Source: a virus (Duplodnaviria > Heunggongvirae > Uroviricota > Caudoviricetes). From it: a stretch of 40,602 nt of DNA. The DNA is taken from the IMG/VR virus record IMGVR_UViG_2541047755_000009; one strand, written 5' to 3'. The notes under the pieces were generated by a model. That model saw only the letters and a list, made by a program, of their open reading frames with translations, was not told the origin of the DNA and did no database searches. Below, piece by piece: positions 6,586-35,602 of this stretch. A program made the position numbers and the translations under genes. How positions within the stretch are numbered: position 1 is the first letter of the stretch; the number at the start of each line of letters is the position of its first letter.

Positions 6586-6602
6586 ATTACCTTTCAGGTA
6601 AT
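6586..6602. promoter_or_regulatory. operator-like palindrome ATTACC-TTTCA-GGTAAT (site A)
   Basis: perfect 6+5+6 inverted repeat abutting a TTGCAA -35-like hexamer upstream of the 6678 gene. Confidence 0.55.
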
Positions 6603-6640
6603 TTGCAAAACGTGCTGGATAGCAAACAAATTATTTGATA

Positions 6641-6656
6641 CTGTATAAATATACAG
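6641..6656. promoter_or_regulatory. LexA (SOS) box
   Basis: taCTGTataaatatACAGtt, i.e. CTGT-N8-ACAG with AT-rich spacer, near-perfect to the enterobacterial LexA consensus; about 20 nt upstream of the GGAGAAG RBS / ATG at 6678. Confidence 0.8.
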
Positions 6657-6677
6657 TTATTGCATGGAGAAGATAAG

Positions 6678-6935
6678 ATGCAGCAGTATCACTATCCACT
6701 GGAAGACGGATTTACCGAAAGGATTCACACGCCGGGAGGCGTCAGGTCACTGGTGGAGGGATCGCACTTGATGAAATTACTCCGGGATCTCGATAAGGAT
6801 GGATTTAATGTCGATGGCCCACTTGCCGAACTGACTGCACTGATTAACTACGTCACCAGCTCACAGATGTCTATGCGGGATCTGCAAACACATCTCGACT
6901 ATTGTGCCGAACAATTACGAAAACAAACCAGATAA
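6678..6935 (+). CDS. small antirepressor-like protein (stand-alone copy of the Bro-N protein C-terminal domain)
   Basis: 85 aa; RBS GGAGAAG; about 75 aa align with the C-terminus of the 7249-7935 product (LMKLLRDLDKDGFNVDGPLAELT...RDLQTH versus LLMNLLNQLQEDGHDVSGAAAELT...RDIQTH). Confidence 0.65.
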   Translation: MQQYHYPLEDGFTERIHTPGGVRSLVEGSHLMKLLRDLDKDGFNVDGPLAELTALINYVTSSQMSMRDLQTHLDYCAEQLRKQTR

Positions 6936-6965
6936 GGTTTGCAATTGCCAAGTGGAGTGCTTATA

Positions 6966-6982
6966 TTTACCTTTGCGGTAAA
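6966..6982. promoter_or_regulatory. operator-like palindrome TTTACC-TTTGC-GGTAAA (site I) inside a GGAGTGC / GCACTCC hairpin
   Basis: same half-site family; sits in the 310-nt untranslated gap between the two antirepressor-like genes. Confidence 0.45.
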
Positions 6983-7248
6983 TTTACATCGCACTCCTCT
7001 TGTGCCATAGTAATCGGGCACTGGCAAAATCCAGTGCCGGGATTGGCGTCCCGAGTTACTACAGAGGCACATATGCCGCATAAGCGGTTTTTTTTATGTG
7101 TAAAGCGCACCTATTCTATGGTGGGCTGTGTGGGGGCACCGAAAGGTGCGCCGGGTCCTTTGTAGCCGGTTACGCCAACCCTGCACAGTTCACCACCAAC
7201 CGATTGGCGTCGGTAGTGGTGATTAACCTAACTACAAAGGTGATCACT

Positions 7249-7935
7249 ATGACTGCTAACGTAACCCCATCTGTTTTTCATTTTGAATCAGAAGCAACCA
7301 TTCGAGCCATTGTTATTGATGGAAATCCTTGGTTTGTTGCCAAAGACGTTATTAAAGCTCTTCAACTGACAAACCCCACTATGTCAATAAAATCTCTTGA
7401 TGATGATGAAAGGGCTAAATTTAACTTAGGCCGTCAAGGCGAAACCAATATTATCAACGAGTCAGGCCTCTACACACTGATCCTCCGCTGCCGCGATGCA
7501 GTAACACCAGGCACTATCCCCTACCGCTTTCGCAAATGGGTTACAGGTGAGGTTCTTCCTCAGATCCGCCGCACCGGAAGTTACATTAAAAACTCGCTCC
7601 CGCAGGAAGAACGCATAAAGATGGTTGCCGACCAGGTTGCAAACGCCACAGCATCAGCAGTGATGCAGGCAATGAAGATAGAGAACAAAACCTACAGCGC
7701 CCCACTGAAGCCCGGCTACCGCAGCCTGATTCATTCGCCGTCTGGTGTTCTCGGCCTGACGGAGAACTCACTGCTGATGAATTTGCTGAACCAGTTACAG
7801 GAAGACGGGCATGACGTATCGGGCGCGGCGGCGGAGCTGACTACCATGTTCTGCTACATCGTCGGTGTGAGCAAATGCCTGCGTGATATCCAGACGCACG
7901 CGGAGTACATCAACGACAAGGCAGGGTTCTTCTGA
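7249..7935 (+). CDS. phage antirepressor with Bro-N domain
   Basis: Bro-N signature IRAIVIDGNPWFVAKDVIKALQL; AAGGTGA RBS before ATG 7249; C-terminal domain shared with the 6678 gene. Confidence 0.8.
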   Translation: MTANVTPSVFHFESEATIRAIVIDGNPWFVAKDVIKALQLTNPTMSIKSLDDDERAKFNLGRQGETNIINESGLYTLILRCRDAVTPGTIPYRFRKWVTGEVLPQIRRTGSYIKNSLPQEERIKMVADQVANATASAVMQAMKIENKTYSAPLKPGYRSLIHSPSGVLGLTENSLLMNLLNQLQEDGHDVSGAAAELTTMFCYIVGVSKCLRDIQTHAEYINDKAGFF

Positions 7936-7946
7936 CAGAACGGCGG

Positions 7947-7972
7947 CACAGGGATGTGCCTTTAAATAATTC
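7947..7972 (+). terminator. terminator-like hairpin after the Bro-N gene
   Basis: GGCACA-GGGA-TGTGCC followed by TTTAAATAATT. Confidence 0.45.
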
Positions 7973-8007
7973 TGTACAGATTGCAGACCGGGGGTGAATA
8001 GCGTACT

Positions 8008-8024
8008 ATTACCTTAAAGGTAAA
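8008..8024. promoter_or_regulatory. operator-like palindrome ATTACC-TTAAA-GGTAAA (site B) with promoter-like TTGCAG / TACTAT hexamers
   Basis: sits between a putative -10 and the GAGGAGG RBS of the 8050 gene. Confidence 0.5.
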
Positions 8025-8049
8025 CCATGTGTTTACATGAGGAGGAGAT

Positions 8050-8259
8050 ATGGGATTTTGGTTCGCTCGTACAAAAACGAGGGATAATGCACCCAGCCCT
8101 CAGGCAAAAAATGCAGAAGTTCCGGCGTCAGCGCAGGTTAACAAGCGTGGTGGTGTGTATATCTCATCACAGCAAATTTCTGAGCTTCCTGAGGTTAAGG
8201 AGATGCGTCGTCTCGCTGCTGCAATCGTTAAACAGGATCTTGCCACTGTAAGGAAATAG
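8050..8259 (+). CDS. hypothetical small hydrophilic protein, first gene of accessory cassette
   Basis: strong RBS GAGGAGG then ATG; 69 aa; stop TAG overlaps the GTG start of the next gene (taGTG). Confidence 0.6.
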   Translation: MGFWFARTKTRDNAPSPQAKNAEVPASAQVNKRGGVYISSQQISELPEVKEMRRLAAAIVKQDLATVRK

Positions 8260-9125
8260 TGTTGTTAGCTCTTCTAATTATCCCCATTCTGGTTAGTGGT
8301 TATATTATGATAACCGCTAACCAGTATCATTATTTCCGTTTATACCGACATGAAGGCCAGCTTCTTTATATGAAAGTAGCTGCATTAGGTACATATTGCC
8401 TTGTTGCTTCGGTAATAATTGCCGCATTTATAAAATATAAATATCCTGATTTTCACCTAGTTCACGATATGGTGGAAACTTTTAATGTAACGTCAAAACC
8501 AGAAACAGATAGAATTTACATGTGGCTGCTTCTTCTCTCAGCCACATCCATTTGCTTCTCTTTGTGTTATGTGTCTGTTGTGTGGGTGAAAGATTTTCTT
8601 CTTGGTTGTTTTTATAAACGTGATATTTATGAGCAAAAAACAGAGGCAATGAAGGCCAGAGTACTGCGAAAAACTTACTCGCAAGGTTCTTTAGACTTAC
8701 TATTGCTTGATGCTATTGAATCGGATCCTAAACGACCAATGCTGATTACTTTATCATCAAACAAAGTGTATGTTGGAATAATAAATGGTTCTGGTGAACC
8801 AACGGAAAATCAGGGTCCGCATCAGCACATATCTTTTGTTCCTTTAATGTCAGGATACAGGAACAAAGACAACTTATCTGTCACATTCACTAATGCTTAT
8901 CCAGGAGAAATACAGGTCAAGCGGACTGCAGCAATAAGAGGAATTAGCAGAAAGAAAGTGCCAGGACTTGAGATCATGGTGTCTATTGACGAAATAAGTT
9001 ATATATCATGGTTTGATTTTGAAGTATATAAAGCAACAAATAACAAAGTAGAATCCAGGGGGCACGTTATTCGTGTTACCAAAAATGGAAGAAATATATA
9101 TCAAAGAAATAGCAAAAAAGAATAG
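8259..9125 (+). CDS. membrane-anchored protein, 3 N-terminal TM helices plus about 180-aa soluble domain (unknown function; exclusion/defense candidate)
   Basis: 288 aa; GTG start coupled to upstream stop; visibly AT-rich codon usage unlike the neighbouring phage genes; intrinsic terminator directly downstream. Confidence 0.65.
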   Translation: MLLALLIIPILVSGYIMITANQYHYFRLYRHEGQLLYMKVAALGTYCLVASVIIAAFIKYKYPDFHLVHDMVETFNVTSKPETDRIYMWLLLLSATSICFSLCYVSVVWVKDFLLGCFYKRDIYEQKTEAMKARVLRKTYSQGSLDLLLLDAIESDPKRPMLITLSSNKVYVGIINGSGEPTENQGPHQHISFVPLMSGYRNKDNLSVTFTNAYPGEIQVKRTAAIRGISRKKVPGLEIMVSIDEISYISWFDFEVYKATNNKVESRGHVIRVTKNGRNIYQRNSKKE

Positions 9126-9146
9126 CCCGCGCTGCGGGCTTTTTTG
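9125..9146 (+). terminator. rho-independent terminator of the accessory cassette
   Basis: GCCCGC-gct-GCGGGC followed by TTTTTTG. Confidence 0.7.
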
Positions 9147-9217
9147 TGGACGAAACAAAAGCCAGTGCTACACTCATTGACGCCACATTGAGGTGGCTTA
9201 TAGATGGAAATTTCACA

Positions 9218-9379
9218 ATGAAAAAAGCATTTGCTGCACTGTTCGTTTTGTTGTCTCTGGTAGCTTCAACTCAGGCCTTTGCCGGTCGTTGTCAGCACGA
9301 CAGCGATACTGCCGCTGACGGCTCCCGCTGCGGTGGGCGTTCTGCGGATTCCCGCCCGGGTGGCGGTGGCATTCGTTAA
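9218..9379 (+). CDS. small secreted Cys-containing peptide (hypothetical)
   Basis: MKKAFAALFVLLSLVASTQAFA signal peptide then about 30 aa Gly/Arg/Asp-rich; start chosen at the internal ATG of track ORF 9146-9379. Confidence 0.35.
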   Translation: MKKAFAALFVLLSLVASTQAFAGRCQHDSDTAADGSRCGGRSADSRPGGGGIR

Positions 9380-9401
9380 AAACAAGGCCGCGAAAGCGGC
9401 C
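9380..9401 (-). terminator. terminator at the end of the minus-strand late operon
   Basis: GGCCGC-tttc-GCGGCC followed on the minus strand by TTGTTTTT. Confidence 0.6.
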
Positions 9402-9402
9402 T

Positions 9403-9414
9403 GTGACATGTCAC
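9403..9414. repeat. 12-bp perfect palindrome GTGACATGTCAC, copy 1 of 3
   Basis: identical 12-mer also at 26972-26983 and 29237-29248. Confidence 0.8.
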
Positions 9415-9707
9415 GTCCCTTTTCTGAATGATAGCCATTCGAAAAATGATGACATTCCACCGCAGACAATAGCAAAGATGATCCCACCAAAGAAGAGAAG
9501 GCCAGCCTGCCACCACTCCCACCGCCATACATCCACAGCGCCAACCATACCAACAATCGCTCCAACAAATGGAATATAGCTCACGATGAAAGCAATGGGG
9601 GCTGCAATTATCCAGTGCAATCCCCACCATGATTCAAGCCCAGCCATAATTGCTGCCAACTGAAAAAGACCAACGACGATATAAACAATGAATCCTATAG
9701 CTTGCAT
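9411..9707 (-). CDS. Trp-rich small membrane protein (about 3 TM helices), function unknown
   Basis: 98 aa; ATG start; last gene of the minus-strand operon before the terminator. Confidence 0.55.
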   Translation of the reverse strand: MQAIGFIVYIVVGLFQLAAIMAGLESWWGLHWIIAAPIAFIVSYIPFVGAIVGMVGAVDVWRWEWWQAGLLFFGGIIFAIVCGGMSSFFEWLSFRKGT

Positions 9708-9719
9708 GTAGTCACCTAT

Positions 9720-9893
9720 TTACCCAGTAAAAATAAGAGGCCTCCCCTCAATAAGGCTTGCAACAAGAACTACTCCCTGCACAACAAAGATGAACCAGCA
9801 AATAGCTTGAGTCTGAGGGTTAAGAAAATATTTGTAGCGGTCAATAAATAACAATACACCAGAAATTATCACACTCAAAATAATTAAAAACAC
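9720..9893 (-). CDS. possible 57-aa hydrophobic peptide (GTG start)
   Basis: not in ORF track; AAGGAAG motif 4 nt before GTG; two hydrophobic segments; directly precedes the 9411-9707 gene. Confidence 0.3.
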   Translation of the reverse strand: MFLIILSVIISGVLLFIDRYKYFLNPQTQAICWFIFVVQGVVLVASLIEGRPLIFTG

Positions 9894-9902
9894 AACACTT
9901 CC

Positions 9903-12377
9903 TTATTGCGGAGTGACATCCTGAGGTCGCCACCAGTATGTCTGGTTAAACTCTTTCTTCGAACGTTGCTCCATTTTACGCAAATAGCCTGGTGAAAAAT
10001 ACTCCTGCATCTGGTTAAAGATCATGTGATCGAGAGCCGCCTTCAAGTACCAGAGATTCGCACCAGGCATCAAACCTTTCCCCAGCTTCACCAGATCACC
10101 ACCAGTCTGCTCACTCTTCCCTTCCACAGCATTTAACGGTATGCCCTGAGCAATCTTCACTACGTCATCAACTAGACCAGCTACCGGGCCAAGCATCGAC
10201 GCCAGCGCGCCGCTTCCGTACCTAGTGTGATCTGACAATAAAAAGTCACCGTAAAGGCCAAGACCACCACCTTTCAGTAGAGCACCAAGCCAGAATTTTG
10301 CGGCATCTTCTCCTGTCATCTCTCGAGGATTACGACCAGACGCAAGGTCGTTAAGTTGTTGCGACAAAGCGCCAAGAATGGTCGTACTGGCAATAAACGT
10401 CGCAATATATGCCGCACGCCCACCAGCAGACGGCATACCCATAGCGCGTGACCAGTGACGCATAACAACCGAGATAGGGAACGATTTAAACAGGAAAACA
10501 CTTCTCGTTAATTCACCTTTCCATGTTCCACGCTGAATACCAGAACCGGTTATCAGTTGCTCACGTGCTCCCGGTGTAATAACAGCCATATCAACTTCTT
10601 CAGTTACGGCACCGAGCAGTTTACGCATTGCCTCAAATTTCACGCGTTCAGGCTCACCAAGATGTTTAACTGCTGAATCAGGGATACGCATAATGCTTTC
10701 CGGTGTCAGCATCGTATTATTACCGTTCCCCCAGTCCTCCTGTTGCGCCAACTTCCATACGCTCCAGTCTGTGTCAGTAATCCCTTTGCTTTTCAGGATA
10801 CGAAAATCAGAGTCATCGAGGCGACGAAGGTCTGGTGTCCGTGACACTACTTCTCCCAGGCTTCCCATCATGGTTACGCCATAGGCGCGCTTGTGCGCAT
10901 CTGACCATGCTGTAAGCCCACTGGCACGCATTACCGCCGTTGCAGCCCAACGAGACACAGACGGCCCCATATTATCCATCGCCCAGCGGTTAACGCTGCC
11001 AAGTAGAGATTCCATCGCCAGACCAGCGCGGCGCGCCCGCGCAAGTTCTGTACGGTTCGTTGGGTCCATAGCTTCAAGCTGGTTGCGGAATAACTGGTTC
11101 ATTGGAAGGTTGGTAACCTTCGCAGACAGATACATGGTTCCAAGATCAGAGAACGATGACAGCAACGCGGATCCGAGTCTGCTGGCAACCAGCCAGTTGC
11201 GGATATTGTCAGACCATCGCGCGATGTGCGGATTCGCTACAGGCTGTGTCTTTCCGGAAATAAAGTTGTACAGATTCTCTGTGTTGTTCGCCAGCCGCTC
11301 GACTTTACCGGTTTTACTCGGGTTAGCTGTTGCCGTTTCTGCCTTCACCTGATCAAGAAGAGAGCGGAAAACATGATCGGGGTTTGGACCATATGTTTCC
11401 ACCAGTGCAATATCTTTACTGATACCTTCCAGGTGACCGACCATGATTTCCCATAGAGAGCGATCGCCATAAAGTTGCTGATATTGCAGATAGGAATCTG
11501 CATCTTTGAAATGTATCTGTCGTGATGCATTACCACGGTTAGCACGTGCGCCGGAAATTCGCATTCCGGTATCAGTAAGCTTATTCAGCCCACCAGTAGC
11601 GATCGTGTTATAAGCCTCTCCAAGAAATGCAGACAACTCGGCATCGTTCATCAGTTGTCCATCGGCTCGGGTATAATATTTGCGATCCAGCTTACCTATA
11701 ACATCGCTAACCCATTTATCTTTTGATACCGCCCCAACCTTTTCCATAGAATGATGTTGAGGGATCCCCCAGTTTTCGAGATAGCCAATGTCCCCACCAG
11801 CATCATTAAACCGGCGGCGCAGTAGCTCTGTCACTTCTCTCCACGCCTTAGCACCTTTTCTTGCTTTAGCATTGCCAGTATTTTGCCCCCGCATTTCATA
11901 TACCAGGTCACGTACGCCCGCTTCATCTTCAAACAGACCAAAAAAGCGAGGATCAACTGCTTCGAATGCCTCCTGCAATTGACTCAATGCATAATCACGG
12001 GTGGCTTTTGTTCTGGATTCAACAGAGAGGAAATTCGATTTACCGTCTGCATTAAAAGCAATAGTACGGTTAAGAGCGCCAAGTTTCCCATCAGCCCCTT
12101 GATAGCTATTGATAAATTTATCCAATCTCTGACGTGCGGCTATAGTGAGGGCCACACGACGTTTCTTTAATGCCGCTTCTCGCTGTAATTCTTCAGATGC
12201 CAATTGTGCTGCACGATACAGCCGCTCTGATTCGGAAAGTTGTCGCCACGACATCGGGTCATCACGAGCAATGGAGCGCATATTTCGATAAATGCGGTCT
12301 TCAATGTTCTGTATTTCTCGCGCCGTTAACGTGCGCTGCGCCGCCTGCTGGACCGCTTGTATACATTCCTGTCTCAT
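9903..12377 (-). CDS. large virion protein (internal/ejection or tail protein)
   Basis: 824 aa in the late structural operon; position analogous to podovirus ejection proteins; no motif recognised. Confidence 0.55.
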   Translation of the reverse strand: MRQECIQAVQQAAQRTLTAREIQNIEDRIYRNMRSIARDDPMSWRQLSESERLYRAAQLASEELQREAALKKRRVALTIAARQRLDKFINSYQGADGKLGALNRTIAFNADGKSNFLSVESRTKATRDYALSQLQEAFEAVDPRFFGLFEDEAGVRDLVYEMRGQNTGNAKARKGAKAWREVTELLRRRFNDAGGDIGYLENWGIPQHHSMEKVGAVSKDKWVSDVIGKLDRKYYTRADGQLMNDAELSAFLGEAYNTIATGGLNKLTDTGMRISGARANRGNASRQIHFKDADSYLQYQQLYGDRSLWEIMVGHLEGISKDIALVETYGPNPDHVFRSLLDQVKAETATANPSKTGKVERLANNTENLYNFISGKTQPVANPHIARWSDNIRNWLVASRLGSALLSSFSDLGTMYLSAKVTNLPMNQLFRNQLEAMDPTNRTELARARRAGLAMESLLGSVNRWAMDNMGPSVSRWAATAVMRASGLTAWSDAHKRAYGVTMMGSLGEVVSRTPDLRRLDDSDFRILKSKGITDTDWSVWKLAQQEDWGNGNNTMLTPESIMRIPDSAVKHLGEPERVKFEAMRKLLGAVTEEVDMAVITPGAREQLITGSGIQRGTWKGELTRSVFLFKSFPISVVMRHWSRAMGMPSAGGRAAYIATFIASTTILGALSQQLNDLASGRNPREMTGEDAAKFWLGALLKGGGLGLYGDFLLSDHTRYGSGALASMLGPVAGLVDDVVKIAQGIPLNAVEGKSEQTGGDLVKLGKGLMPGANLWYLKAALDHMIFNQMQEYFSPGYLRKMEQRSKKEFNQTYWWRPQDVTPQ

Positions 12378-25881: not shown

Positions 25882-25970
25882 ATCAATGACTCCGTACGCA
25901 ATTAAATTATTACCAATTTAACCACATATGATTTATTTATCGTAGACAGTTGACATTTAACGCGCGAATT

Positions 25971-25987
25971 ATTACCTTTAAGGTAAC
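25971..25987. promoter_or_regulatory. operator-like palindrome ATTACC-TTTAA-GGTAAC (site C) next to a TTGACA hexamer
   Basis: same family as the immunity-region operators; lies between the late operon and the tRNA leader. Confidence 0.5.
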
Positions 25988-26315: not shown

Positions 26316-26392
26316 GTGGCATTAGCTCAGTTGGACAGAGCAACCGCCTTCTAAGCGGTTGGTCGCAGGTTCGAATCCTGCATGCCACGCCA
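26316..26392 (+). tRNA. tRNA-Arg, anticodon UCU (reads AGA)
   Basis: 77 nt cloverleaf: acceptor GTGGCAT / ATGCCAC, D-stem GCTC / GAGC with A20, anticodon stem ACCGC / GCGGT, loop CTTCTAA, T-arm GCAGG-TTCGAAT-CCTGC, G73, encoded CCA. Confidence 0.9.
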
Positions 26393-26436
26393 GAATCACG
26401 CCTAAGGACCGTGATGCCAGAAGTTCCAGGGGATTG

Positions 26437-26477
26437 GCGGTGATGGTTTCCCTTGAAGGACTATCACCGCCCTTTTT
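26437..26477 (+). terminator. rho-independent terminator downstream of the tRNA
   Basis: GGCGGTGAT...ATCACCGCC stem followed by CTTTTT. Confidence 0.65.
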
Positions 26478-26555
26478 ACAGCAGGACGCCATTGCGATGA
26501 CTTCATGCTGTAAACCAGTACAGCCACGGAAGGCATAACTCATTGCTTCCAGTTC

Positions 26556-26579
26556 GCCCGGTTCGCCGGGCATTTTTTT
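26556..26579 (+). terminator. second hairpin plus T-run directly upstream of the 26596 gene RBS (terminator or attenuator)
   Basis: GCCCGG-ttcg-CCGGGC followed by ATTTTTTT. Confidence 0.55.
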
Positions 26580-26595
26580 AAGGTGAGAATAGACT

Positions 26596-26967
26596 ATGAG
26601 TGACAAAGACATTGAATCTGAAATTCAGGCTAAAGGTTTAGCCGCGCCGCGCGTTACGCCAGACCATATCGAGAGCATTATTGCTCAGGAGGCATATTTC
26701 ACAGCAGAAGATGGTGTCTTTGGCGTAGCCATAAAAGCGAAACATACTGGCGGAGAGGTAAACTACCAGCCGCACGAATCACTTTCTCTGCTGACATTCT
26801 GCGTTCTGGTGCTGCGCAACGGCTTCACCGTCACCGGAGAGAGCGCCTGTGCAAGCCCGGAAAACTTTGATGCGGAAATTGGTCGGAAGATTGCCCGGCA
26901 GAATGCTGTAAACAAAATCTGGATGCTTGAAGGTTACTTGCTGAAGCAGAAGTTAAGCGAGCAATAA
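26596..26967 (+). CDS. conserved phage protein, tentatively Gp49 / Sf6-gene-66-like
   Basis: 123 aa; AAGGTGAG RBS; family assignment from memory only. Confidence 0.4.
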   Translation: MSDKDIESEIQAKGLAAPRVTPDHIESIIAQEAYFTAEDGVFGVAIKAKHTGGEVNYQPHESLSLLTFCVLVLRNGFTVTGESACASPENFDAEIGRKIARQNAVNKIWMLEGYLLKQKLSEQ

Positions 26968-27057: not shown

Positions 27058-28533
27058 TTAAGCATAGGGATCGTAATCTGTAATGGCCTTGCCTTGCTGG
27101 TTCTGCTGACCGGGAATTCGCAGACGCTTCGACACCGGGAAAGCAAACGTCAGCAGTAGCGCATCGCCTTTACCCGGCGAACGCCCAAGCCGCTCCTTGA
27201 TATCTTCCTTCGGTTCGATAACGATTTTACCGTCCACGCGAACTTTGTACTCTGCCGCCGACAGGTCGTCCGCTGTTTCCTGGTCATCCAGCATGCCGCC
27301 CAGCCTCAGCCATGTCTTGCATGCATTGAACATCTCCCCACGCTTGTTAAGCATCTGCGGGTCAGTGGACGCACCGCCGAACGGAACAAGTTGCCATGTA
27401 CGTCCCCAGCCATCACCGATTGACTTCAAACCGGTTCCGTAACCGAAGTCGATGAACACCGCGTCAGCCTGGTACTGGTCTTCAAAGTCAGCGATACGCT
27501 TCGCCATAATCAGATCGTCGGTGGTCTTGTTGCCAGTCCATAGCACCTTACTATGCAACCCCTGCCGCAGGTATATCACCGCGTCATCAACGCCTGAATA
27601 TGCCGGGTCAACACCGATTATCACCGGTGCATGTGCCACCTGCGCAGCAGTTACCACCCGTTTCATTGCCTCGTCAGTAAGACCGGTAGGGATAAACTGC
27701 AATTCAGATGCATTAGGGAATATGCCGCGTACACGGATTTTAACGAAGTCGCTGTCTTCCCCGTAGTCATCAACCCATTTCTGCAATTGCTGCTTGTTAG
27801 TACCTTCCACCGTCCGGCTGTCAATCTGCGCAGTTTTCCAGCGGTGTTTATATTTGCGGAAACATTCACGGAATCGCCCGGTATTACGTGTCGGGTTTCC
27901 GAACGCCACCCAGATAATCTCAGTGTCTTCGTCCGTTAGCGCACCTTCGGCAACTTCCCACACCAGATCCGCAATGTTCGACGCTTCATCGAATACCACG
28001 ATAATACGTTTGCGCTCGTTGTGTAGTCCGGCGAATGCCTCAGTGTTGTGCTCAGACCAGGGAATTGCGTCAGCTCGCCACCGCTTGTCGTGCCCAGGAT
28101 CATTGCTGTACATCGCGGTAGCGGTACAGGTAAACCAGTCTTTCGTGATAGCAAGGTTGGACCACTTGATAATTTCCGGCCAGGTCTTCGTTCGTAGCTG
28201 GTTGTCGGTGTTGGCGGTCACCACGACCTTACAATCCTCGCAAGTGGACATGCCCCAGTTGATCAGCATTGAGATGAATGCGGATTTACCAATACCGTGA
28301 CCAGAAGCACGTGCCAGCATAAGCGGCTGATAGCGCGTCTCTGGATTCTGCAGATGATCACGTATCTCTCGGAACGCATCGGCCTGCCACTGACGTGGAC
28401 CGGTGGCATGTGCCAGTTCAGTACCCTCTTCCCCCCACGGGAACGCATAGAGGGCATAGCCAAGCGGATCGTGAGTGAACCCTGCAATATCCTCGATCAA
28501 CTGCTCTTCAGGAGATAACGCTGTATCTGTCAC
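27058..28533 (-). CDS. terminase large subunit
   Basis: Walker A-like ARASGHGIGKS; about 490 aa; GTG start overlapping the small-subunit stop. Confidence 0.85.
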   Translation of the reverse strand: MTDTALSPEEQLIEDIAGFTHDPLGYALYAFPWGEEGTELAHATGPRQWQADAFREIRDHLQNPETRYQPLMLARASGHGIGKSAFISMLINWGMSTCEDCKVVVTANTDNQLRTKTWPEIIKWSNLAITKDWFTCTATAMYSNDPGHDKRWRADAIPWSEHNTEAFAGLHNERKRIIVVFDEASNIADLVWEVAEGALTDEDTEIIWVAFGNPTRNTGRFRECFRKYKHRWKTAQIDSRTVEGTNKQQLQKWVDDYGEDSDFVKIRVRGIFPNASELQFIPTGLTDEAMKRVVTAAQVAHAPVIIGVDPAYSGVDDAVIYLRQGLHSKVLWTGNKTTDDLIMAKRIADFEDQYQADAVFIDFGYGTGLKSIGDGWGRTWQLVPFGGASTDPQMLNKRGEMFNACKTWLRLGGMLDDQETADDLSAAEYKVRVDGKIVIEPKEDIKERLGRSPGKGDALLLTFAFPVSKRLRIPGQQNQQGKAITDYDPYA

Positions 28534-29126
28534 TGATTACCATCCTGACGTTCTTTGAGTCGCTTCCTGGCTGCTGCTATGCGATCAGCAATTGTCACAT
28601 TCACATTAACATCCAGACGTTCTTTGAACGCGTTGACATCAACATGCTTACCAATCAGTTCTAGGTTCTTCACCTTGTCAGGCCATTTAATTTTTTTGAG
28701 GATTGTCTCTATCGAATCCTCGTTCATGTTCATGATGGTCGATGACAGATCAAAGCCACTAAGCGTAGTGCGCCAGATTTTCGGCCACTCACGGATTGGT
28801 TTAAGGCTCCCATCGTCGTTGAGGATATCGATCACGTCCATCTGGTCGATCTCCACCAAGCGCATGAGAACGTAATCAGCACTGACGCGCATTCGTTTGT
28901 TGCGCTCCTCCATCAACTCGGCAATCCGTTTTTGAATGCGTTCATCGCGCATCATGACACTGGCTTTAACTGCCGCTGTATTTGGGGAGAATCCTGCGTT
29001 AATCGCTGCCTGAGTCTGGTTTTCAGGCGTTTTGATGTATGACTGGCAATAAGCCTCCTGCATTGCTGTGAGCGGCTTAAATTGCGTTGATTTGCGTTTA
29101 TAGGTTTTAGGTTCAGCAGGCATCAT
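28530..29126 (-). CDS. terminase small subunit
   Basis: about 198 aa from the ATG doublet near 29126 (track ORF extends to a TTG at 29204 without RBS); directly upstream of and coupled to the large subunit. Confidence 0.6.
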   Translation of the reverse strand: MMPAEPKTYKRKSTQFKPLTAMQEAYCQSYIKTPENQTQAAINAGFSPNTAAVKASVMMRDERIQKRIAELMEERNKRMRVSADYVLMRLVEIDQMDVIDILNDDGSLKPIREWPKIWRTTLSGFDLSSTIMNMNEDSIETILKKIKWPDKVKNLELIGKHVDVNAFKERLDVNVNVTIADRIAAARKRLKERQDGNQ

Positions 29127-29236
29127 AACCACCGTGGTAATAGTTACCGTTGTGGTAATAGTACCATGCAAAATAAAGCCGCCATAGTTGGCGGCAGTAT
29201 TCAAAACCCGTCAAATTCATCATGCATAATCTACTC

Positions 29237-29248
29237 GTGACATGTCAC
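29237..29248. repeat. 12-bp perfect palindrome GTGACATGTCAC, copy 3 of 3
   Basis: immediately upstream of the small terminase gene. Confidence 0.8.
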
Positions 29249-29592
29249 ACTATTAATTTCGTTTCATGCCAGCCTTTAGTCACCCAGCATTGCGAGTCAC
29301 CATTACACGGGCATGAATTAACTGGAACTCTCTCGCCGCACTTACCGCAACGTTTTCTGCTGATCGATTTTATACGCCCGCGCACACGTGCATCATCCTG
29401 GCGGATCAGCAGCGCGATGTACTCGGCCATTTCATAGGGATCGCGACCAGGGCGCCGGGCGGCGCAGTTCCGCGCCAGCATTTCCTGCTCCTGCTTATCC
29501 AGCACCAGTTCAATTTTGCGCTCACCGGCGGCGGACTGCCGAGCGCGCTGCGCGGCTTTGCGTTCTGCGGGGGATTTAGCCACGAATCGCAC
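29245..29592 (-). CDS. basic protein with C-terminal Cys cluster (possible zinc-binding DNA-binding protein)
   Basis: 115 aa; Arg/Lys-rich N-terminus; CGKCG...CPC...C cluster; GTG start; immediately upstream of the terminase genes. Confidence 0.45.
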   Translation of the reverse strand: MRFVAKSPAERKAAQRARQSAAGERKIELVLDKQEQEMLARNCAARRPGRDPYEMAEYIALLIRQDDARVRGRIKSISRKRCGKCGERVPVNSCPCNGDSQCWVTKGWHETKLIV

Positions 29593-30708: not shown

Positions 30709-30709
30709 A

Positions 30710-31438
30710 TCACTCTCCTTTGATGCGAATGCCAGCTGCGCTTGCTGATTCTTCATATGCGCGTTTAGCAGCGTTAAGGATTGCTGCCAGTGGCGTATAG
30801 CCGCCATCCATTCGGATTGTGTTGTGGATGCCAGCCATTGTGTCGCGCAATTTGCTGTGGCTAGCAGACAGTTCTGCAATGCGCTTCTCTGCGGCTTCCA
30901 GCTTCTCGCGCATATCGTCAACGTACTCGACCAGAGAACCGCCAGCAGGAATTTCGCACTCCTCGACCAGTTGGAAGTAGATATCAGCTGCGGCCCGTGT
31001 GTTGCTATGCCTAGCGTCGCCCATCTCACCTTCACGAAGAGCATCGCGTTCGGCGGTAAGATTGGCTATTTTGCTGTCTTTGCCTTCCAGCTCAACGCGC
31101 AGCTTCCCTACCGTTAGCGCAATATCCTCGTTCTCCTGGTCGCGGCGTTTTATGTATTGCTGGTTTCTTTCCCGTTCATCCAGTAGTGCCAGCACGGTAG
31201 CCGGATTGGCTGCGGCGATGAATTCAGCATTGGCCTGCTGTTCCATTTGGAAATCTTCATCGAAACCGCTTTCTGGATGCGCTCCTTCAATTCTGCAAAT
31301 GGGAATATATCCAGCAGCCTCGCGATGAATTAGTGCATCATCACCATCAAATCGGCCCTCTCCATATTCGAGTGACCACACACCACACGTTGCTTTTTCT
31401 GCCTTTTCACGCAGTGCCTGATAGTCAATCTTGCTCAC
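30710..31438 (-). CDS. Ea22/ead-like early protein
   Basis: 242 aa; coiled-coil middle region; resembles lambdoid Ea22-type proteins from memory. Confidence 0.5.
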   Translation of the reverse strand: MSKIDYQALREKAEKATCGVWSLEYGEGRFDGDDALIHREAAGYIPICRIEGAHPESGFDEDFQMEQQANAEFIAAANPATVLALLDERERNQQYIKRRDQENEDIALTVGKLRVELEGKDSKIANLTAERDALREGEMGDARHSNTRAAADIYFQLVEECEIPAGGSLVEYVDDMREKLEAAEKRIAELSASHSKLRDTMAGIHNTIRMDGGYTPLAAILNAAKRAYEESASAAGIRIKGE

Positions 31439-32010
31439 TGGTTGCCTCCTTTGCGAAGCTGAGCGGCTAACTCGTCACATATGTGCGTCAAAGCGCAAAG
31501 TTGGATTGCTGGGTGTTCGCGCACCATCTCAACCCCCTGCGCCCGTACTTCAGCCAGGAAAGCATCGATGGCTGGGTGCTCTGTCTGGCTATGCATTACC
31601 CATTCAGATAAGTACTCGAAGCAACGGCGAAACTCCTGCCAATCACTGCACATGTTTAGGTTTCCGCCTTCACACTCGAACTGGTAATTCTCTAAACGGT
31701 CTGCAAACGCCCTGCCATTCTCGATGGCACCAAGTGGAGCATCAGATTTCAGCCAAGCATTCTCCGCCACCAGCGCTGAAAACTTCTCGTGTGCCAACTT
31801 AACAGCCGAATCAGCCTGCTTAATTGACTCAATCGCTTTCTGCTGGTCTTCGGCCAGCGCATTAGCACGCGCCAGTTGCACTTCCAGTTGCGTTGCCAAA
31901 TCGCTGATCAGCTTTGCCACACTGCGCATATCAACGGCACCACATTCTGCTTTCAGTTCCGAAGCCATCTCATGCCCGGCGGCAACTAACCCTTTGATAT
32001 TACTTTCCAT
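31435..32010 (-). CDS. coiled-coil early protein (Ea22-like family, tentative)
   Basis: 191 aa; ATG start; overlaps the downstream gene start. Confidence 0.45.
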   Translation of the reverse strand: MESNIKGLVAAGHEMASELKAECGAVDMRSVAKLISDLATQLEVQLARANALAEDQQKAIESIKQADSAVKLAHEKFSALVAENAWLKSDAPLGAIENGRAFADRLENYQFECEGGNLNMCSDWQEFRRCFEYLSEWVMHSQTEHPAIDAFLAEVRAQGVEMVREHPAIQLCALTHICDELAAQLRKGGNQ

Positions 32011-32071
32011 CTTTACCCTCGCTTATCCACATAACTTATTGATTACATTGATAACTAAAAAGATCGTCGAT

Positions 32072-32416
32072 TCAGAACTCTTCGATGTTCCAGCCACCAC
32101 CTGCTTTCTTTGGTTTAACCGTTACCCCGATGATTCGGAACGGATACTGATCTGCGGCGACTTTGGTTTTCACCCTGGCGTCGTCGGTCCAGAAACCTTT
32201 CACTTCGTGCAGTTCCATCTCGCCGGTGACGAGCATCACAGCGAAATCGGGCGTATAGAACGTGTTGTCAGCTAACCGCAGCTTGATACCCTCGAATCGA
32301 TACCAGGCGATTTCCCCTGCACGTTTACGCTGCTCAAGGTGCTGGCAATACGCAGATTCTGTTTTGTTCATCTGGCCTGTTTTGAGTCGACCAAGAGCCT
32401 GTATCTGTTTTCTCAT
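32072..32416 (-). CDS. small PD-(D/E)XK nuclease-like protein
   Basis: 114 aa with YTPDF...MELHEVKG arrangement compatible with a D...E-x-K nuclease core. Confidence 0.4.
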   Translation of the reverse strand: MRKQIQALGRLKTGQMNKTESAYCQHLEQRKRAGEIAWYRFEGIKLRLADNTFYTPDFAVMLVTGEMELHEVKGFWTDDARVKTKVAADQYPFRIIGVTVKPKKAGGGWNIEEF

Positions 32417-32418
32417 GA

Positions 32419-32497
32419 TTTACCTCTGAGGTAATTAAAAACCACATAAGACACTAAATCAATAGAATTTAGAATATTTTGTTACCCAATAGGTAAC
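32419..32497. promoter_or_regulatory. two operator-like palindromes (TTTACC-TCTGA-GGTAAT and GTTACC-CAATA-GGTAAC) in the gap after the P-like gene
   Basis: sites J and H; the second is a perfect 6+5+6 palindrome. Confidence 0.5.
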
Positions 32498-32533
32498 TAT
32501 CGAGGCGTAAAAAAATGCGCTATCGCGCTGGTA

Positions 32534-33334
32534 TTACTTGATAAATCCTGCCGCCTTTCCCCGCCTGTATTCCTCCATCAGCCACTGCGCCGGTGTTATT
32601 CCCCCAAGGGTGGCGGCGTTAGGCATGCACCCGAAACTTCGCCCTGGCGGGTGGTAAACGTCTCTCCCTGTGTCCGGAGGTGTACTCATGGGTTCTGGCT
32701 TTGCCTGTATGCTGATCACCGGATCGGGTATCTGCTGTCCGGAAGCCACCTTTTTCGCCCAATCATCGAGCAGCCTGCGCGCGTGTTTCTCAACCTCAAT
32801 CTCGCTAAGCTGGCGCTGATACATTGCACGGCGGGTATCACATACGACCCAGTACATAACCGGATGTCGCCACGGGAATCTTTCGGGACCGCCAGGATAT
32901 AAACTTTTTTCCTTGCTGTACCGGTGAAACTCCGCCATCACATCGTCAATGGTGACGCCAAGAACCATCTTGCTGTCTTTGCACCACTTGATGAATTGCC
33001 CTGGCGACGGCCAGAACGGAGATTCACTGGCGCGGGCGTGGCGCATACCAGCAGAAACCTGTTCACGGGTTCGGATCCCCCCTTCGGCAAACGCAGCAAT
33101 CCACTGCTGTTTTGCAGCAACTTCCTGCTCTGGCGTCTTCAGGTTGGTTACCACTGCCGCCGGAAACAGTTGTTTCAGCTGTTTAAAAAGGGCATCAACA
33201 AGCCTCTCTGCTGACATGTTCACCACATTGTCATTGTTGACGTATTGATGCTCATAACCTGACATGCGAGAAAGGGCTTCTCCGTCACGGTTTTGTATCG
33301 CGGTAAAAACGTTGTTCACAAGAAATCCTCCCAT
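32534..33334 (-). CDS. replication protein P-like helicase loader
   Basis: segment IRTREQVSAGMRHARASESPFWPSPGQFIKWCK parallels lambda P (MEQVNAGMRVARRQNRPFLPSPGQFVAWCRE). Confidence 0.8.
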   Translation of the reverse strand: MGGFLVNNVFTAIQNRDGEALSRMSGYEHQYVNNDNVVNMSAERLVDALFKQLKQLFPAAVVTNLKTPEQEVAAKQQWIAAFAEGGIRTREQVSAGMRHARASESPFWPSPGQFIKWCKDSKMVLGVTIDDVMAEFHRYSKEKSLYPGGPERFPWRHPVMYWVVCDTRRAMYQRQLSEIEVEKHARRLLDDWAKKVASGQQIPDPVISIQAKPEPMSTPPDTGRDVYHPPGRSFGCMPNAATLGGITPAQWLMEEYRRGKAAGFIK

Positions 33335-34131
33335 GCTTCAGGGCTGTTCCAGTGCGGAACGTTGTTATCAGGTAATGTTGATTGCTTCTGTCTGCTAATC
33401 TGCAGCCGCCTTGCCAGCTTCTGCTCCCACTGTGCCTGATGGTATGCCTTACCCTCAGCCATCCAGTAAATTCTGAACTCTGCAAGTTCCTGTGCCGTTG
33501 GCAGACTGTCCAGGTAGATCCCCTGCAATGAGCTTTTCCGAAGAAAGTCATCTGATGGCTGCCATTGTTCATGCATGACAAATTTGCCTAATTGCCCTGG
33601 CCCACCAGGAGGAACAAAGTTATTCATCACGGCGTTGTTTGCGCCGGGGTCATGAGGCACAGAATCCCCGCTTTTTGTCCTGCTCTCCCTCTCTTGGTTA
33701 AATGACTGGTTATATGACTGGTTCTGGATCCCGTTTTTGGGATCATTCAACATCCCGTTTTTGGGATCATTCAACATCCCGTTTTTGGGTATATTCCCTT
33801 TTTCGGTAACATTACCGTTTTCGGGTTCATTGCCCCCCTCTCGGTTGCCTTTAATGTTCCCGTTTTTGGTTATATTAAGAGAGAAAACCCGCACTCTTTT
33901 TGTCGCTCCCTTTCTCTCCCCGGTATCTGAAATAAGCCCCATTTTCATGAGCGATATAAGTCCGGCCTGCACGGTTTTTTTATTCAGGCAAGTGTCTTTA
34001 ACGAGGCGTTCTATGCTGGGGTAGCAGAGGTTATATTCATCGGCTCTGTCAGCCATCGAGAGCAGTATGAGCTTTAATGACGAGCTACCTGGATCTGTCT
34101 CCCAGGCCCAATCTGTTGCATGTCTGCTCAT
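33316..34131 (-). CDS. replication initiator O-like protein containing the ori iterons
   Basis: N-terminal HTH-like region; central repeated peptide NGNV..KNGMLNDPKNGMLNDPKNG encoded by DNA iterons; directly upstream of the P-like gene with overlap. Confidence 0.65.
   Translation of the reverse strand: MSRHATDWAWETDPGSSSLKLILLSMADRADEYNLCYPSIERLVKDTCLNKKTVQAGLISLMKMGLISDTGERKGATKRVRVFSLNITKNGNIKGNREGGNEPENGNVTEKGNIPKNGMLNDPKNGMLNDPKNGIQNQSYNQSFNQERESRTKSGDSVPHDPGANNAVMNNFVPPGGPGQLGKFVMHEQWQPSDDFLRKSSLQGIYLDSLPTAQELAEFRIYWMAEGKAYHQAQWEQKLARRLQISRQKQSTLPDNNVPHWNSPEAWEDFL
33725..33875. repeat. origin-of-replication iterons (4-6 copies of ATCCCGTTTTTGGGAT-type palindromic repeats)
   Basis: near-identical repeats with roughly 24-bp periodicity inside the O-like gene, as in lambda ori. 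Confidence 0.7.
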
Positions 34132-34146
34132 GATTAATCTCCGCTA

Positions 34147-34383
34147 TCAGCTTGAATGTTGTGGGGAGGAATTAATCATGATCTGCTTAATCTCTGCCCT
34201 GATACGACGGTTTGATTCCATGGTGCACTCAACACAGTGTCCGTTGTAAACCCAGCGTTCACTGTCATGTCCGTGCTTACATGTTTTTCCGGTGTAGTAG
34301 CGTTTAAGTCCGCGCTTTGCGGCATCAATACGTGTAATGATTTCCATGGTAAGCCCTGTTATTAGTATTGGGATTACGGTCAT
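34147..34383 (-). CDS. small zinc-ribbon protein (CxH...CVEC), function unknown
   Basis: Cys/His cluster; start ambiguous (ATG at 34383 or 34347; track begins at TTG 34410). Confidence 0.4.
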   Translation of the reverse strand: MTVIPILITGLTMEIITRIDAAKRGLKRYYTGKTCKHGHDSERWVYNGHCVECTMESNRRIRAEIKQIMINSSPQHSS

Positions 34384-34426
34384 TTTGTGCTGACACAAAA
34401 AAAATATCAACCAGATTTGGTTTTTT

Positions 34427-34442
34427 ATTACCTTTGAGGTAC
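34427..34442. promoter_or_regulatory. operator-like site ATTACC-TTTGA-GGTAC (site D) downstream of the Cro-like gene
   Basis: one mismatch in the right half-site. Confidence 0.4.
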
Positions 34443-34497
34443 GAATAGATATGAAAAGACCGCCGGGTGGCGGTCTACAGAGGGTTGTAGCTGGATA

Positions 34498-34728
34498 TCA
34501 TGAGTAGAAGAAGTATGCCAGTTCTGCTTTTGAGCGCAGCCATTGTCTTGTTTTACAGGCTTTAAAAAGCCCATTCATCAATACTTTACCTGGCATTTTG
34601 CGCTTACCTGTTAAGTGAGTCTGGATATAGTGACTCGTCGTTCCGGCTTCCTGTGCGAAGGCTTCACGCTCATCCGGAGTAAGTGCAAGCCAGTGCTTTT
34701 TGAAATCGAAATGTCCGTTATCGCTCAT
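34498..34728 (-). CDS. Cro-like HTH regulator
   Basis: 76 aa; first gene of the rightward early operon, divergent from the repressor; HTH-like segment AFAQEAGTTSHYIQTHLTGKRKM. Confidence 0.55.
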   Translation of the reverse strand: MSDNGHFDFKKHWLALTPDEREAFAQEAGTTSHYIQTHLTGKRKMPGKVLMNGLFKACKTRQWLRSKAELAYFFYS

Positions 34729-34763
34729 AGCTATTGCCTGATATTTATTTCAGATAATAAATA

Positions 34764-34828
34764 TTCACCCATAAGGTAACAAAAATCAAGGATAGTTACC
34801 TATGAGGTGCATTTACCTGTTGGGTAAT
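34764..34828. promoter_or_regulatory. immunity-region operators (three sites) with divergent promoters
   Basis: TTCACC-CATAA-GGTAAC, GTTACC-TATGA-GGTGC and TTTACC-TGTTG-GGTAAT within the 154-nt gap; on the cro strand a TTGTTA-N17-TATTAT promoter-like pair overlaps the first site. Confidence 0.65.
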
Positions 34829-34882
34829 ATTGCTTTAAATTGAATCATCTACTGATTCATATATGAGGCGATTTTCCAGAAA

Positions 34883-35467
34883 ATGAAAAGTATCCAGGAC
34901 GTCCGCAGGCAAAATCTCAACGACTTGATCGACCGTGAATTCAATGGTGTTCAGACGCGGATGGCAGAAAAACTTGGAACTCAGGCAAATCTGGTAAACC
35001 GCTGGGCTCTTGGCAAGAAGGTTATCGGCGACCAGGTTGCACGAAAAATTGAAGCTGCCGCCAATAAACCCCGTAACTGGCTTGATATTGATCGCTCGCT
35101 TTCTCAGGAGGGTTTTCAGCCTGTCGGCCCGAGCGATATAGGTCAGCTGGCGGCTCACAACCTGGAACGCTGGATGAGCGAAAGCCGCGACCTTTCAACG
35201 CAGGGAAAACTACACCGCGCATCCGGCGTCGCCCAGGTGACAATCAGCCGCCTGTTAAACAATGAGGTCAGCGTTTCCATTTCCACCCTGGAGAATGTTG
35301 CATCCGCATTCGGGCGTCACGGCTATGAATTACTGATTCACCCGCACGACCCTGCGACCATCAACTATGATCGCTCGCGCTACGCATTGTTACCCGAAAC
35401 CGAGAAAGCAAAGATCGAAAGTTACATTGAATTTGTCATCAACCAGAACGAAAAAAACAAACAATAA
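34883..35467 (+). CDS. prophage repressor, dual HTH, no S24 peptidase domain
   Basis: XRE-type HTH QTRMAEKLGTQANLVNRWALGKK plus a second HTH-like segment; no Ser/Lys autocleavage module at 194 aa; divergent from the Cro-like gene across the operator cluster. Confidence 0.7.
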   Translation: MKSIQDVRRQNLNDLIDREFNGVQTRMAEKLGTQANLVNRWALGKKVIGDQVARKIEAAANKPRNWLDIDRSLSQEGFQPVGPSDIGQLAAHNLERWMSESRDLSTQGKLHRASGVAQVTISRLLNNEVSVSISTLENVASAFGRHGYELLIHPHDPATINYDRSRYALLPETEKAKIESYIEFVINQNEKNKQ

Positions 35468-35489
35468 AATCATATTTTTCAGTAAGTAA

Positions 35490-35511
35490 GCCGCCAGAAG
35501 GCGGCTTTTTT
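35490..35511 (+). terminator. rho-independent terminator after the repressor gene
   Basis: GCCGCC-agaa-GGCGGC followed by TTTTTT. Confidence 0.75.
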
Positions 35512-35523
35512 ATTGCCTATTCG

Positions 35524-35602
35524 ATTACCTAATGGGTAATTTTTTTAACTCATATCTATTGACATCAAACCAGATACGCATAATTATTACCTCAACGGTA
35601 AC
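35524..35602 (+). promoter_or_regulatory. promoter for the plus-strand early operon bracketed by two operators
   Basis: ATTACC-TAATG-GGTAAT (perfect), TTGACA -35, TAATTA -10-like hexamer about 16-17 nt later, then ATTACC-TCAAC-GGTAAC. Confidence 0.6.

Follow-up and report, generated by a model that had tools for sequence, protein, structure and literature searches.

Dispersed 17-bp palindromes as probable operators of an epsilon15/SPC32H-type lysogeny repressor in a phiV10-like Escherichia coli prophage

Introduction

The lysogeny switch of phages epsilon15 and SPC32H is built from a repressor (Rep), an antirepressor (Ant) and a LexA box. Here we describe a family of 17-bp palindromes with the consensus ATTACC-N5-GGTAAT in the IMG/VR virus record IMGVR_UViG_2541047755_000009, a stretch of 40,602 nucleotides that is called the window throughout, and compare it with that switch and with other phage repressor systems. 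The whole window is about 98% identical to already sequenced phages, its immunity region (32000-38000) matches the Escherichia phages phiv142-3, PAS61 and phiV10 at 97-98% identity, and the gene order is the phiV10 map in reverse. Judged by these alignments, the window is a phiV10-like prophage of E. coli, genus Uetakevirus (epsilon15 family).

The SPC32H switch (PDB 5D50/5D4Z) has Rep and Ant proteins homologous to those of the window, a LexA box before ant, and a Rep without a peptidase domain. According to two reports, SPC32H Rep is tetrameric when it binds palindromic DNA, its DNA-binding pairs being made up from different dimers, and is disassembled by tetrameric Ant (PMC9638917, PMC9986798). 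The second report describes an N-terminal DNA-binding domain, a dimerization domain and a p53-like tetramerization domain, the latter of a kind linked to DNA looping (PMC9986798). Experiments with phage ZX5 showed that overexpression of an identical repressor cut the lysis-gene transcripts by more than 99.9% and that an overexpressed Bro-N-type antirepressor lowered lysogeny (PMC9782041).

The RefSeq record of epsilon15 (NC_004775.2) labels seven sites as 'protein_bind repressor / lysogeny' (12-27, 2931-2947, 19895-19911, 32479-32494, 32554-32570, 32616-32632 and 35906-35922), and all of them match ATTACC-N5-GGTAAT. In epsilon15 this 17-bp consensus is found before TerS, before gp3, in the gap between ant and the tail-fibre gene, 3' of the repressor gene and after the replication genes. 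The phiV10 record is without such operator annotation.

Wide dispersal of the sites of one phage repressor is also familiar from C1 of phage P1 and from the gp71 'stoperators' of mycobacteriophage L5, where more than 10 dispersed sites likewise serve many transcription units. The P1 C1 and L5 gp71 sites are asymmetric and are read by a monomer.

Results

Detection of the palindrome family

The exact palindrome was found twice in the window (6586 and 35524; 0.00 expected). With up to two mismatches we detected 15 matches against 1.21 expected, a count that none of 100 shuffled sequences reached. A 25-column weight matrix, trained only on the sites of epsilon15, SPC32H, Tyrion (Enterobacter) and BUCT711 (Klebsiella) and with the window excluded to avoid circularity, detected 14 sites in the window. 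Twelve of these are strong, with scores of 15.8-25.7 (6586, 6966, 8008, 25971, 29143, 32419, 32481, 34427, 34764, 34812, 35524 and 35586), and two are weak, with scores of about 11 (29125 and 34795), each lying 17-18 bp from a strong neighbor. The sequence-wide maximum reached the strong scores in at most 1% of 200 Markov nulls. Three further matches with up to two mismatches (3438, 16697 and 37170) had matrix scores below 6 and were taken as chance.

An earlier sequence-only reading of this DNA had listed 12 sites of the family and proposed a weight-matrix scan and a comparison with enterobacterial DNA. All of its coordinates were correct and the matrix built from other phages recovered every one of the 12, adding a tandem pair (29125/29143) before TerS that the list had missed. 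The proposed comparison gave 12 prophage sites with scores of at least 15 against none in 50 kb of E. coli K-12, where two matches with up to two mismatches were present and the top score was 14.3. Split by segment, the 38.7-kb prophage part of the window holds all 15 matches with up to two mismatches and all 12 sites with scores of at least 15, and the 1.87-kb putative host flank (positions 1-1870) has none by either measure. The half-sites with a 4-bp spacer are not enriched in the window (1 match vs 1.1 expected).

The sites are strongly intergenic in the related genomes: 11 of 15 in phiV10, where intergenic DNA is 6.5% of the genome (P = 9e-11), and 16 of 18 in epsilon15, where it is 6.6% (P = 2e-17). 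Every site heads a transcription unit, mostly directly after the terminator of the preceding unit.

Map of the sites and promoter geometry

The sites and the elements next to them are given below. Promoter and start-site positions are predictions from a simple sigma-70 score or consensus.

6586-6602: operator ATTACCTTTCAGGTAAT, between the divergently oriented tailspike (minus) and ant (plus) genes; exact match, score 24.0
6641-6656: LexA box CTGTATAAATATACAG, perfect, 22 bp before the ant start codon and conserved in six phages
6966-6982: operator TTTACCTTTGCGGTAAA, centered on the predicted start site of TTGCAA-17-TATATT (6939-6967); found by the matrix and mismatch scans
8008-8024: operator ATTACCTTAAAGGTAAA, centered on the predicted start of TTGCAG-17-TACTAT (7981-8009); heads a variable cargo slot (8027-9125)
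25971-25987: operator ATTACCTTTAAGGTAAC, overlapping the -10 element of the plus-strand promoter TTGACA-17-TACCTT, which faces tRNA-Arg and the gene 26596-26967
29125-29141 (weak) and 29143-29159 (strong, score 23.1): tandem operators, 18 bp apart
32419-32435: post-replication downstream operator, centered on the predicted start and abutting the start codon of a DUF1064 gene
32462-32434, minus strand: predicted post-replication promoter TTGATT-17-TTTAAT
32481-32497: post-replication upstream operator, at about -62 and 62 bp from 32419
34410-34382, minus strand: predicted replication-operon promoter TTGATA-17-CAAAAT
34427-34443: operator in which one half is degenerate (GGTACG), past the Cro-like gene terminator and at about -60 from the replication-operon promoter
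34764-34780: operator covering the -35/-10 elements of the predicted promoter of the Cro-like gene
34795-34811: weak operator, the middle one of three in the gap between the Cro-like and repressor genes
34812-34828: operator whose left half is the -35 element of the predicted repressor promoter
35524-35540: early-left upstream operator, exact match, at about -62 and after the repressor gene terminator (35488-35507)
35559-35587, plus strand: early-left promoter TTGACA-17-AATTAT, predicted to drive the recombination operon
35586-35602: early-left downstream operator, centered on the predicted start site, 62 bp from 35524

The earlier reading had placed three copies in the cro/repressor gap and two around a promoter 3' of the repressor gene, with recurrences at the antirepressor, accessory, tRNA-side and replication-side loci. 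The map agrees with it: 34764, 34795 and 34812 lie between the minus-strand Cro-like gene and the plus-strand repressor gene, 35524 and 35586 bracket the early-left promoter, and the copies at 6586, 6966, 8008, 25971, 32419/32481 (after the P-like gene) and 34427 were confirmed in position. Two of the three gap sites are degenerate, with 3-4 mismatches.

Two positional classes were detected relative to the best predicted promoters. The operator center falls at +0 for 6966, 32419 and 35586 and at -6 for 25971, and in the upstream class it falls at -62 for 35524 and 32481 and at -60 for 34427. At both the early-left and the post-replication promoter, exactly 62 bp separate the upstream operator from the downstream one. 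The promoter assigned to 8008 is the second-ranked candidate of the scan and is conserved in the relatives. The predicted start sites are at about 6974, 8016, 25985, 32427, 34375 and 35594.

At ant, the simple promoter scan gave conflicting candidates, and a conserved element from the alignment of six phages was used instead. This promoter-like element, TGGATA-17-TACTGT, is overlapped by the LexA box, and we infer that it is the ant promoter. The likely start site of ant would then be about 57 bp downstream of operator 6586, which is syntenic with the annotated repressor site 19895-19911 of epsilon15. Operator 25971 is syntenic with the annotated site 2931-2947. The tandem pair 29125-29159 has a minus-strand terminator (29195-29178) on one side and the probable start codon of TerS (position 29123) on the other, and its epsilon15 counterpart includes the annotated site 12-27.

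An 11-mer, TCATATCTATT, adjoins the replication-side operator (34444-34454, minus strand) and the early-left operator (35550-35560, plus strand). It has 5 matches with up to one mismatch against 0.58 expected, and it may be the remnant of a duplicated control module or a further binding site.

Conservation of the sites in related phages

The repressor of the window is 100% identical to that of phiV10, 78% to that of Tyrion, 45% to that of BUCT711 and 42% to those of epsilon15 and SPC32H, and all five phages have the same consensus at matching map positions. Common to the relatives are a single site that precedes the head operon, one site or two where the antirepressor is encoded, the cluster in the gap between the repressor and Cro-like genes and one site past the Cro-like gene terminator. 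The 62-bp early-left pair is present in all of them (63 bp in BUCT711), and the 62-bp pair after the replication genes in all five. Spacing within the gap triple (17 + 30/31 bp) is the same in epsilon15, SPC32H and BUCT711, and in phiV10 and Tyrion the middle site is under the cut-off. The TerS tandem is kept in phiV10, Tyrion and epsilon15, and in SPC32H the first site alone passes the cut-off; the BUCT711 record is interrupted at the TerS position.

Six of the seven labelled epsilon15 sites have counterparts in the window, the third early-left site (32479-32494) being the one without, and further unannotated matches are also common to both. Unlike epsilon15, the window also has an operator at the Bro-N/Ant-like gene and one at the cargo promoter, and it is without the site before the lysis cassette. 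A site before int, found in 5 of 5 relatives, would fall past the end of the window.

In four relatives an operator stands between the O-antigen conversion genes and the lysis cassette (phiV10 24691, epsilon15 24703, SPC32H 24781, Tyrion 26407), and in BUCT711 it was not found. The window has neither an operator nor a conversion gene at that position.

When the regulatory regions are aligned, half-sites, -35 elements and spacings stand out as islands of identity amid diverged DNA, and the early-left block CTATTGAC is conserved in six phages. The degenerate GGTACG half at 34427 is equally degenerate in phiV10 and Tyrion, and such conservation of imperfect halves suggests that site affinities are tuned.

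Regulatory proteins of the window

Four regulatory proteins are predicted next to the sites.

34883-35467, plus strand: lysogeny repressor Rep, 194 aa; phmmer match to PDB 5D50_A, E = 4e-42
34498-34728, minus strand: Cro-like protein, 76 aa; phrog_35 'transcriptional repressor', E = 5.6e-13
6678-6935, plus strand: small antirepressor Ant, 85 aa; phmmer match to chain E of 5D50, E = 1.9e-46, about 87% identity
7096-7935, plus strand: Bro-N protein with a C-terminal Ant-like domain; Pfam Bro-N, E = 7.8e-20

Residues 1-190 of Rep align to residues 2-197 of SPC32H Rep (5D50_A), a full-length homology that covers an N-terminal helix-turn-helix, a middle HTH_3-like domain and a C-terminal tetramerization/Ant-binding region. 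Pfam returned only helix-turn-helix families for Rep, with no S24 peptidase domain. Rep is 100% identical to phiV10 gp40, and the identical repressor is carried by at least 80 viral contigs: the loci listed by a query with the five-lineage alignment, at least 80, were all 100% identical in the repressor. Relative to epsilon15, Rep is 42% identical overall and 53% in the DNA-binding domain.

Residues 196-277 of the Bro-N protein match phrog_450, the family of the small Ant (E = 6e-36), making this protein a candidate second antirepressor. Two Ant-domain proteins are encoded in the window, the small Ant behind a LexA box and the Bro-N/Ant-like protein behind a repressor operator; the latter, with its own operator-covered promoter, is a difference from the SPC32H switch. 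We observed an unexplained asymmetry of divergence from SPC32H: Ant is about 87% identical to its partner and Rep about 42%, and the C-terminal, Ant-binding part of Rep is included in this far greater divergence.

A more distant comparison was provided by the Pseudomonas siphophage PseuP_224 (OP795451.1), whose CI has an N-terminal domain 39% identical to that of Rep and is a LexA-like cleavable repressor with a C-terminal peptidase. Five ATTACC-N4-GGTAAT sites flank its gene in a classic OL/OR layout (10905-10946 and 11767-11821), and the genome has 7 such matches against 0.47 expected. These operators were found by a custom palindrome scan, the quick inverted-repeat scan having returned a terminator only. 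The half-sites are those of the window, while the spacer is 4 bp, the positions are OL/OR only, the peptidase is LexA-like, the phage is a siphovirus and the Cro is unrelated: BLASTP of the PseuP_224 Cro-like ORF against the Cro-like protein of the window gave no alignment at E <= 100. PseuP_224, with a shared DNA-binding domain and half-site, a different C-terminal induction module and a spacer shorter by 1 bp, is an example of domain shuffling among phage repressors. In H-19B and Mcat9, which have more distant homologues, related half-sites (TTTACC-N5-GATAAA) were found in the cI-cro gaps.

Comparison with known repressor systems

By the features that can be read from sequence, the window is a member of the epsilon15/SPC32H Rep-Ant-LexA immunity system: full-length Rep homology, absence of an S24 peptidase domain, Ant homology, the LexA box and sites at positions annotated in epsilon15 were all found.

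The window shares with the OL/OR system of phage lambda a divergent pair of repressor and Cro-like genes that enclose three operators, a further operator set at early-left and, as predicted from the sites, cooperative multi-site binding. It differs in a repressor that is not self-cleaving, in operators at seven or more further places, and in operator pairs that enclose one promoter with a spacing of 62 bp, where lambda has neighboring triplets and a long loop between OL and OR. The window repressor has no S24 peptidase domain, its C-terminus is homologous to the Ant-binding domain of SPC32H, and 9 of the 14 sites lie outside the two immunity-flanking clusters, all of which sets the system apart from the lambda type. 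The regulon broader than OL/OR that the earlier reading had put forward is borne out by the 14-site map and is already on record for epsilon15.

The likeness to P1 C1 and L5 gp71 is one of dispersal. The window sites are palindromic, and the repressor is of a tetrameric, different and structurally solved family. The Pfam, PDB-sequence and PHROG matches of the window proteins included none to the P1 or L5 repressors, no dedicated search having been made.

A second palindrome family

A second palindrome, AACCA-N4-TGGTT with the core CATATRNGGTT, was found at promoters of the window.

3852-3873, 6543-6564, 6922-6943, 25916-25937 and 34405-34426: AACCA-N4-TGGTT sites
32436-32454 and 35564-35585: weaker sites of the same family

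With up to one mismatch it has 8 matches in the window against 1.34 expected. Each Uetakevirus genome contains the core expression 1-7 times, and the window twice, where about 0.1 would be expected; it is absent from 50 kb of K-12. Before the head operon, the tailspike gene and the lysis cassette, the palindrome lies 7 bp upstream of a -10-like hexamer with no -35 element, and the head-operon block that contains it is nearly invariant across six phages; at two other promoters it overlaps the -35 element. By this arrangement, the promoters with the second palindrome look like activator-dependent late promoters, the putative ones being at 3850, 6540 and 25915. Phage regulators that come into question as readers of the palindrome are the Cro-like protein, the protein encoded at 29245-29583 and a PerC-like protein. 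The epsilon15 record has no annotation for AACCA-N4-TGGTT.

Cargo slot, TerS start and other features of the window

The slot after the Bro-N gene (7981-9125) is variable in its cargo. The promoter-operator module at its head (TTGCAG-17-TACTAT with the operator) is conserved in phiv142-3 and TL-2011b with different genes behind it: a 74-aa and 288-aa pair in the window, a YafO-type toxin-antitoxin in TL-2011b and a small ORF in phiv142-3. The loci compared for this slot are L090 (3871), L091 (3002) and L092 (4116). The cargo genes of the window (8027-9125) had no Pfam, NCBIfam or PADLOC match.

TerS (28530-29204 in the window, 41-715 in phiV10, NC_007804.2) has a TTG start at 29204 if the phiV10 annotation is followed, which would put the terminator hairpin 29195-29178 and two operators inside the coding sequence. 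In epsilon15 and Tyrion the start is an ATG right after the second operator, equivalent to position 29123 of the window, and the phiV10 annotation of TerS is probably 27 codons too long.

The remaining features are as follows.

~2000-3800: lysis genes
26316-26392, plus strand: tRNA-Arg (anticodon TCT), 3' of the operator-covered promoter (25950-25987)
39352-40602, minus strand: integrase gene, reaching the right end of the window

SPC32H likewise carries a tRNA-Arg at the corresponding locus. An antisense ORF (26322-26612) that matches phiV10 p04 overlaps the tRNA-Arg gene of the window and is a doubtful gene. From the phiV10 map, positions 1 to ~1870 would be host flank; an IS200/IS605-family transposase is predicted there (1219-1728, minus strand, E = 2.6e-43), together with a weak match to a YiaD-like lipoprotein (E = 1e-07, under the family cut-off).

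Discussion

The 14 palindromes of the window are very probably the operators of its lysogeny repressor, a Rep of the epsilon15/SPC32H type. The reading of the sites as immunity operators is supported by the repressor labels in the epsilon15 record, the homology to SPC32H Rep, the invariance of the recognition-helix stretch NLVNRW in five lineages with one and the same consensus, and the comparison with PseuP_224. The earlier proposal that one protein serves the early, antirepressor, accessory and tRNA-side units is supported as well, its least secure part being the gating of the antirepressor, since the site at ant stands upstream of the likely promoter and a LexA box is present there.

Several points weigh on the other side of this assignment. 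Promoter and start-site positions are consensus predictions, and repressor binding in this prophage is deduced from sequence. The sites recorded for epsilon15 and SPC32H may include some that annotators deduced and that were not shown by experiment. Unpartnered operators at about -57 to -62 (6586 and 34427) have no obvious route to repression. The pre-lysis site of the relatives adjoins O-antigen conversion genes, which lysogens must express, and the sites may not all be repressive. The TerS-side pair has G+C-rich spacers and one weak member. Within the genus, the recognition-helix stretch NLVNRW of Rep is invariant in the five-lineage alignment, the Cro-like stretch AGTTSHYIQ-HLT is conserved in five lineages with one variable position (T/V), and the consensus itself does not vary. 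Covariation within the genus cannot separate the two possible readers, because the helix-turn-helix of the Cro-like protein is as invariant as that of Rep.

For the tandem pair 29125-29159 taken by itself, a packaging or terminase recognition element in place of an operator is unlikely. The pair is directly before the small terminase gene, near the start of all database records of these phages, and the G+C content of its spacers is unlike that of the other sites, but it fits the consensus (29143 scores 23.1), the epsilon15 record labels the first member of its pair as a repressor site, and a terminator followed by an operator is the layout of other operon junctions as well. A double role of the pair, as operator and packaging signal, likewise has a small probability.

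It is somewhat less likely still that the Cro-like protein (34498-34728) or another phage regulator is the main or sole reader of the sites. In lambdoid phages, Cro uses the operators of the repressor too, as is textbook knowledge, and the Cro-like helix-turn-helix of the window tracks the consensus across five lineages as well as Rep does. The epsilon15 record, however, assigns the sites to the repressor, and PseuP_224 combines the half-site and a homologous repressor domain with an unrelated Cro-like ORF, which ties the half-site to the DNA-binding domain of the repressor. The Cro-like protein may share the operators with the repressor; such sharing is compatible with the assignment to Rep, while exclusive use by Cro is not.

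RNA hairpins in 5' leaders, acting in processing or translational control, are a very improbable explanation of the palindromes. Several sites do fall in predicted leaders, and at 32419 and 8008 the right half-site is just before the start codon, in the ribosome-binding position. The predicted hairpins are weak (-3.5 to -5 kcal/mol), however, the sites about 60 bp upstream are outside the transcripts of the promoters that they flank, and it is the sequence of the half-sites that is conserved and not just their complementarity. Among 61 distinct sites, nearly every change affects one side only and disrupts pairing: we counted 21 single-sided deviations (3 of them G-U compatible) and no compensatory one at mirror positions 2/16 and 3/15, and no compensatory change was found at positions 2/16 to 6/12. 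One-sided departures from the consensus fit a protein that reads each half-site.

Base composition or chance, which would be at home only with the three low-scoring matches (3438, 16697 and 37170), is a negligible explanation of the pattern given 15 matches against 1.2 expected, a best K-12 score of 14.3, intergenic placement at P <= 9e-11 and positions conserved across genera.

With the sites assigned to Rep, a working model of the switch can be proposed. Each TTACC half-site would be read by one N-terminal helix-turn-helix domain, and the Rep tetramer would offer two DNA-reading heads, with which the 62-bp pairs and the 17/18-bp tandems fit. Rep bound at the start-site and -10 operators (6966, 8008, 25971, 32419 and 35586) would directly keep RNA polymerase off most of the non-late promoters, as it would at 34764 and 34812 over -35/-10 elements, where Rep would regulate its own promoter and that of the Cro-like gene. 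For the upstream class at about 60 bp (35524, 32481, 34427 and 6586), one tetramer could bridge a 62-bp pair, about six helical turns, and form a small loop over the promoter. The sites, their excess over chance, their place at promoters, their conservation and the protein homologies are observed, whereas it is inferred that Rep binds, that it represses at the individual sites, that the DNA loops and that the upstream sites have an effect. In the lysogen, Rep would hold down the early-left, replication, post-replication, tRNA-side, Bro-N/Ant-like and cargo units, and at the TerS pair it would block entry into the late operon. Upon DNA damage, removal of LexA would allow Ant to be made, and Ant would take Rep off the DNA; Rep would be switched off by the antirepressor and not cleaved in the SOS response. 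The effect of 6586 on ant is uncertain, and this site may serve the divergent tailspike side instead or also.

A more tentative extension, which we consider possible but doubtful, is that the Rep tetramer clamps the -62 and +1 operators in a 62-bp micro-loop and that at ant the LexA box fills the +1 slot, producing a two-key lock of Rep and LexA in which Rep regulates its own antagonist and the cargo slot is wired into immunity. If this is true, new cargo would come under immunity control on arrival, through the promoter-operator module that heads the slot.

The public epsilon15 record already contains the consensus, its dispersal and its attribution to the repressor; they are known and not new, and current understanding of the operator family is unchanged. 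Four points appear to be incremental additions: the geometry of start-site and -62 operators, the 62-bp spacing and its conservation, the module at the cargo slot and the link to PseuP_224. Full-text literature searches, which did not extend to the primary epsilon15 and SPC32H papers, returned nothing on operator sequences.

Taken together, silencing of nearly all transcription units by one protein would explain the quiescence of a common type of E. coli prophage, and its induction would be explained by a LexA-controlled antirepressor rather than by cleavage of the repressor. The 14-site map provides a target list for phages of the phiV10 type, which are used as O157 reporter phages.

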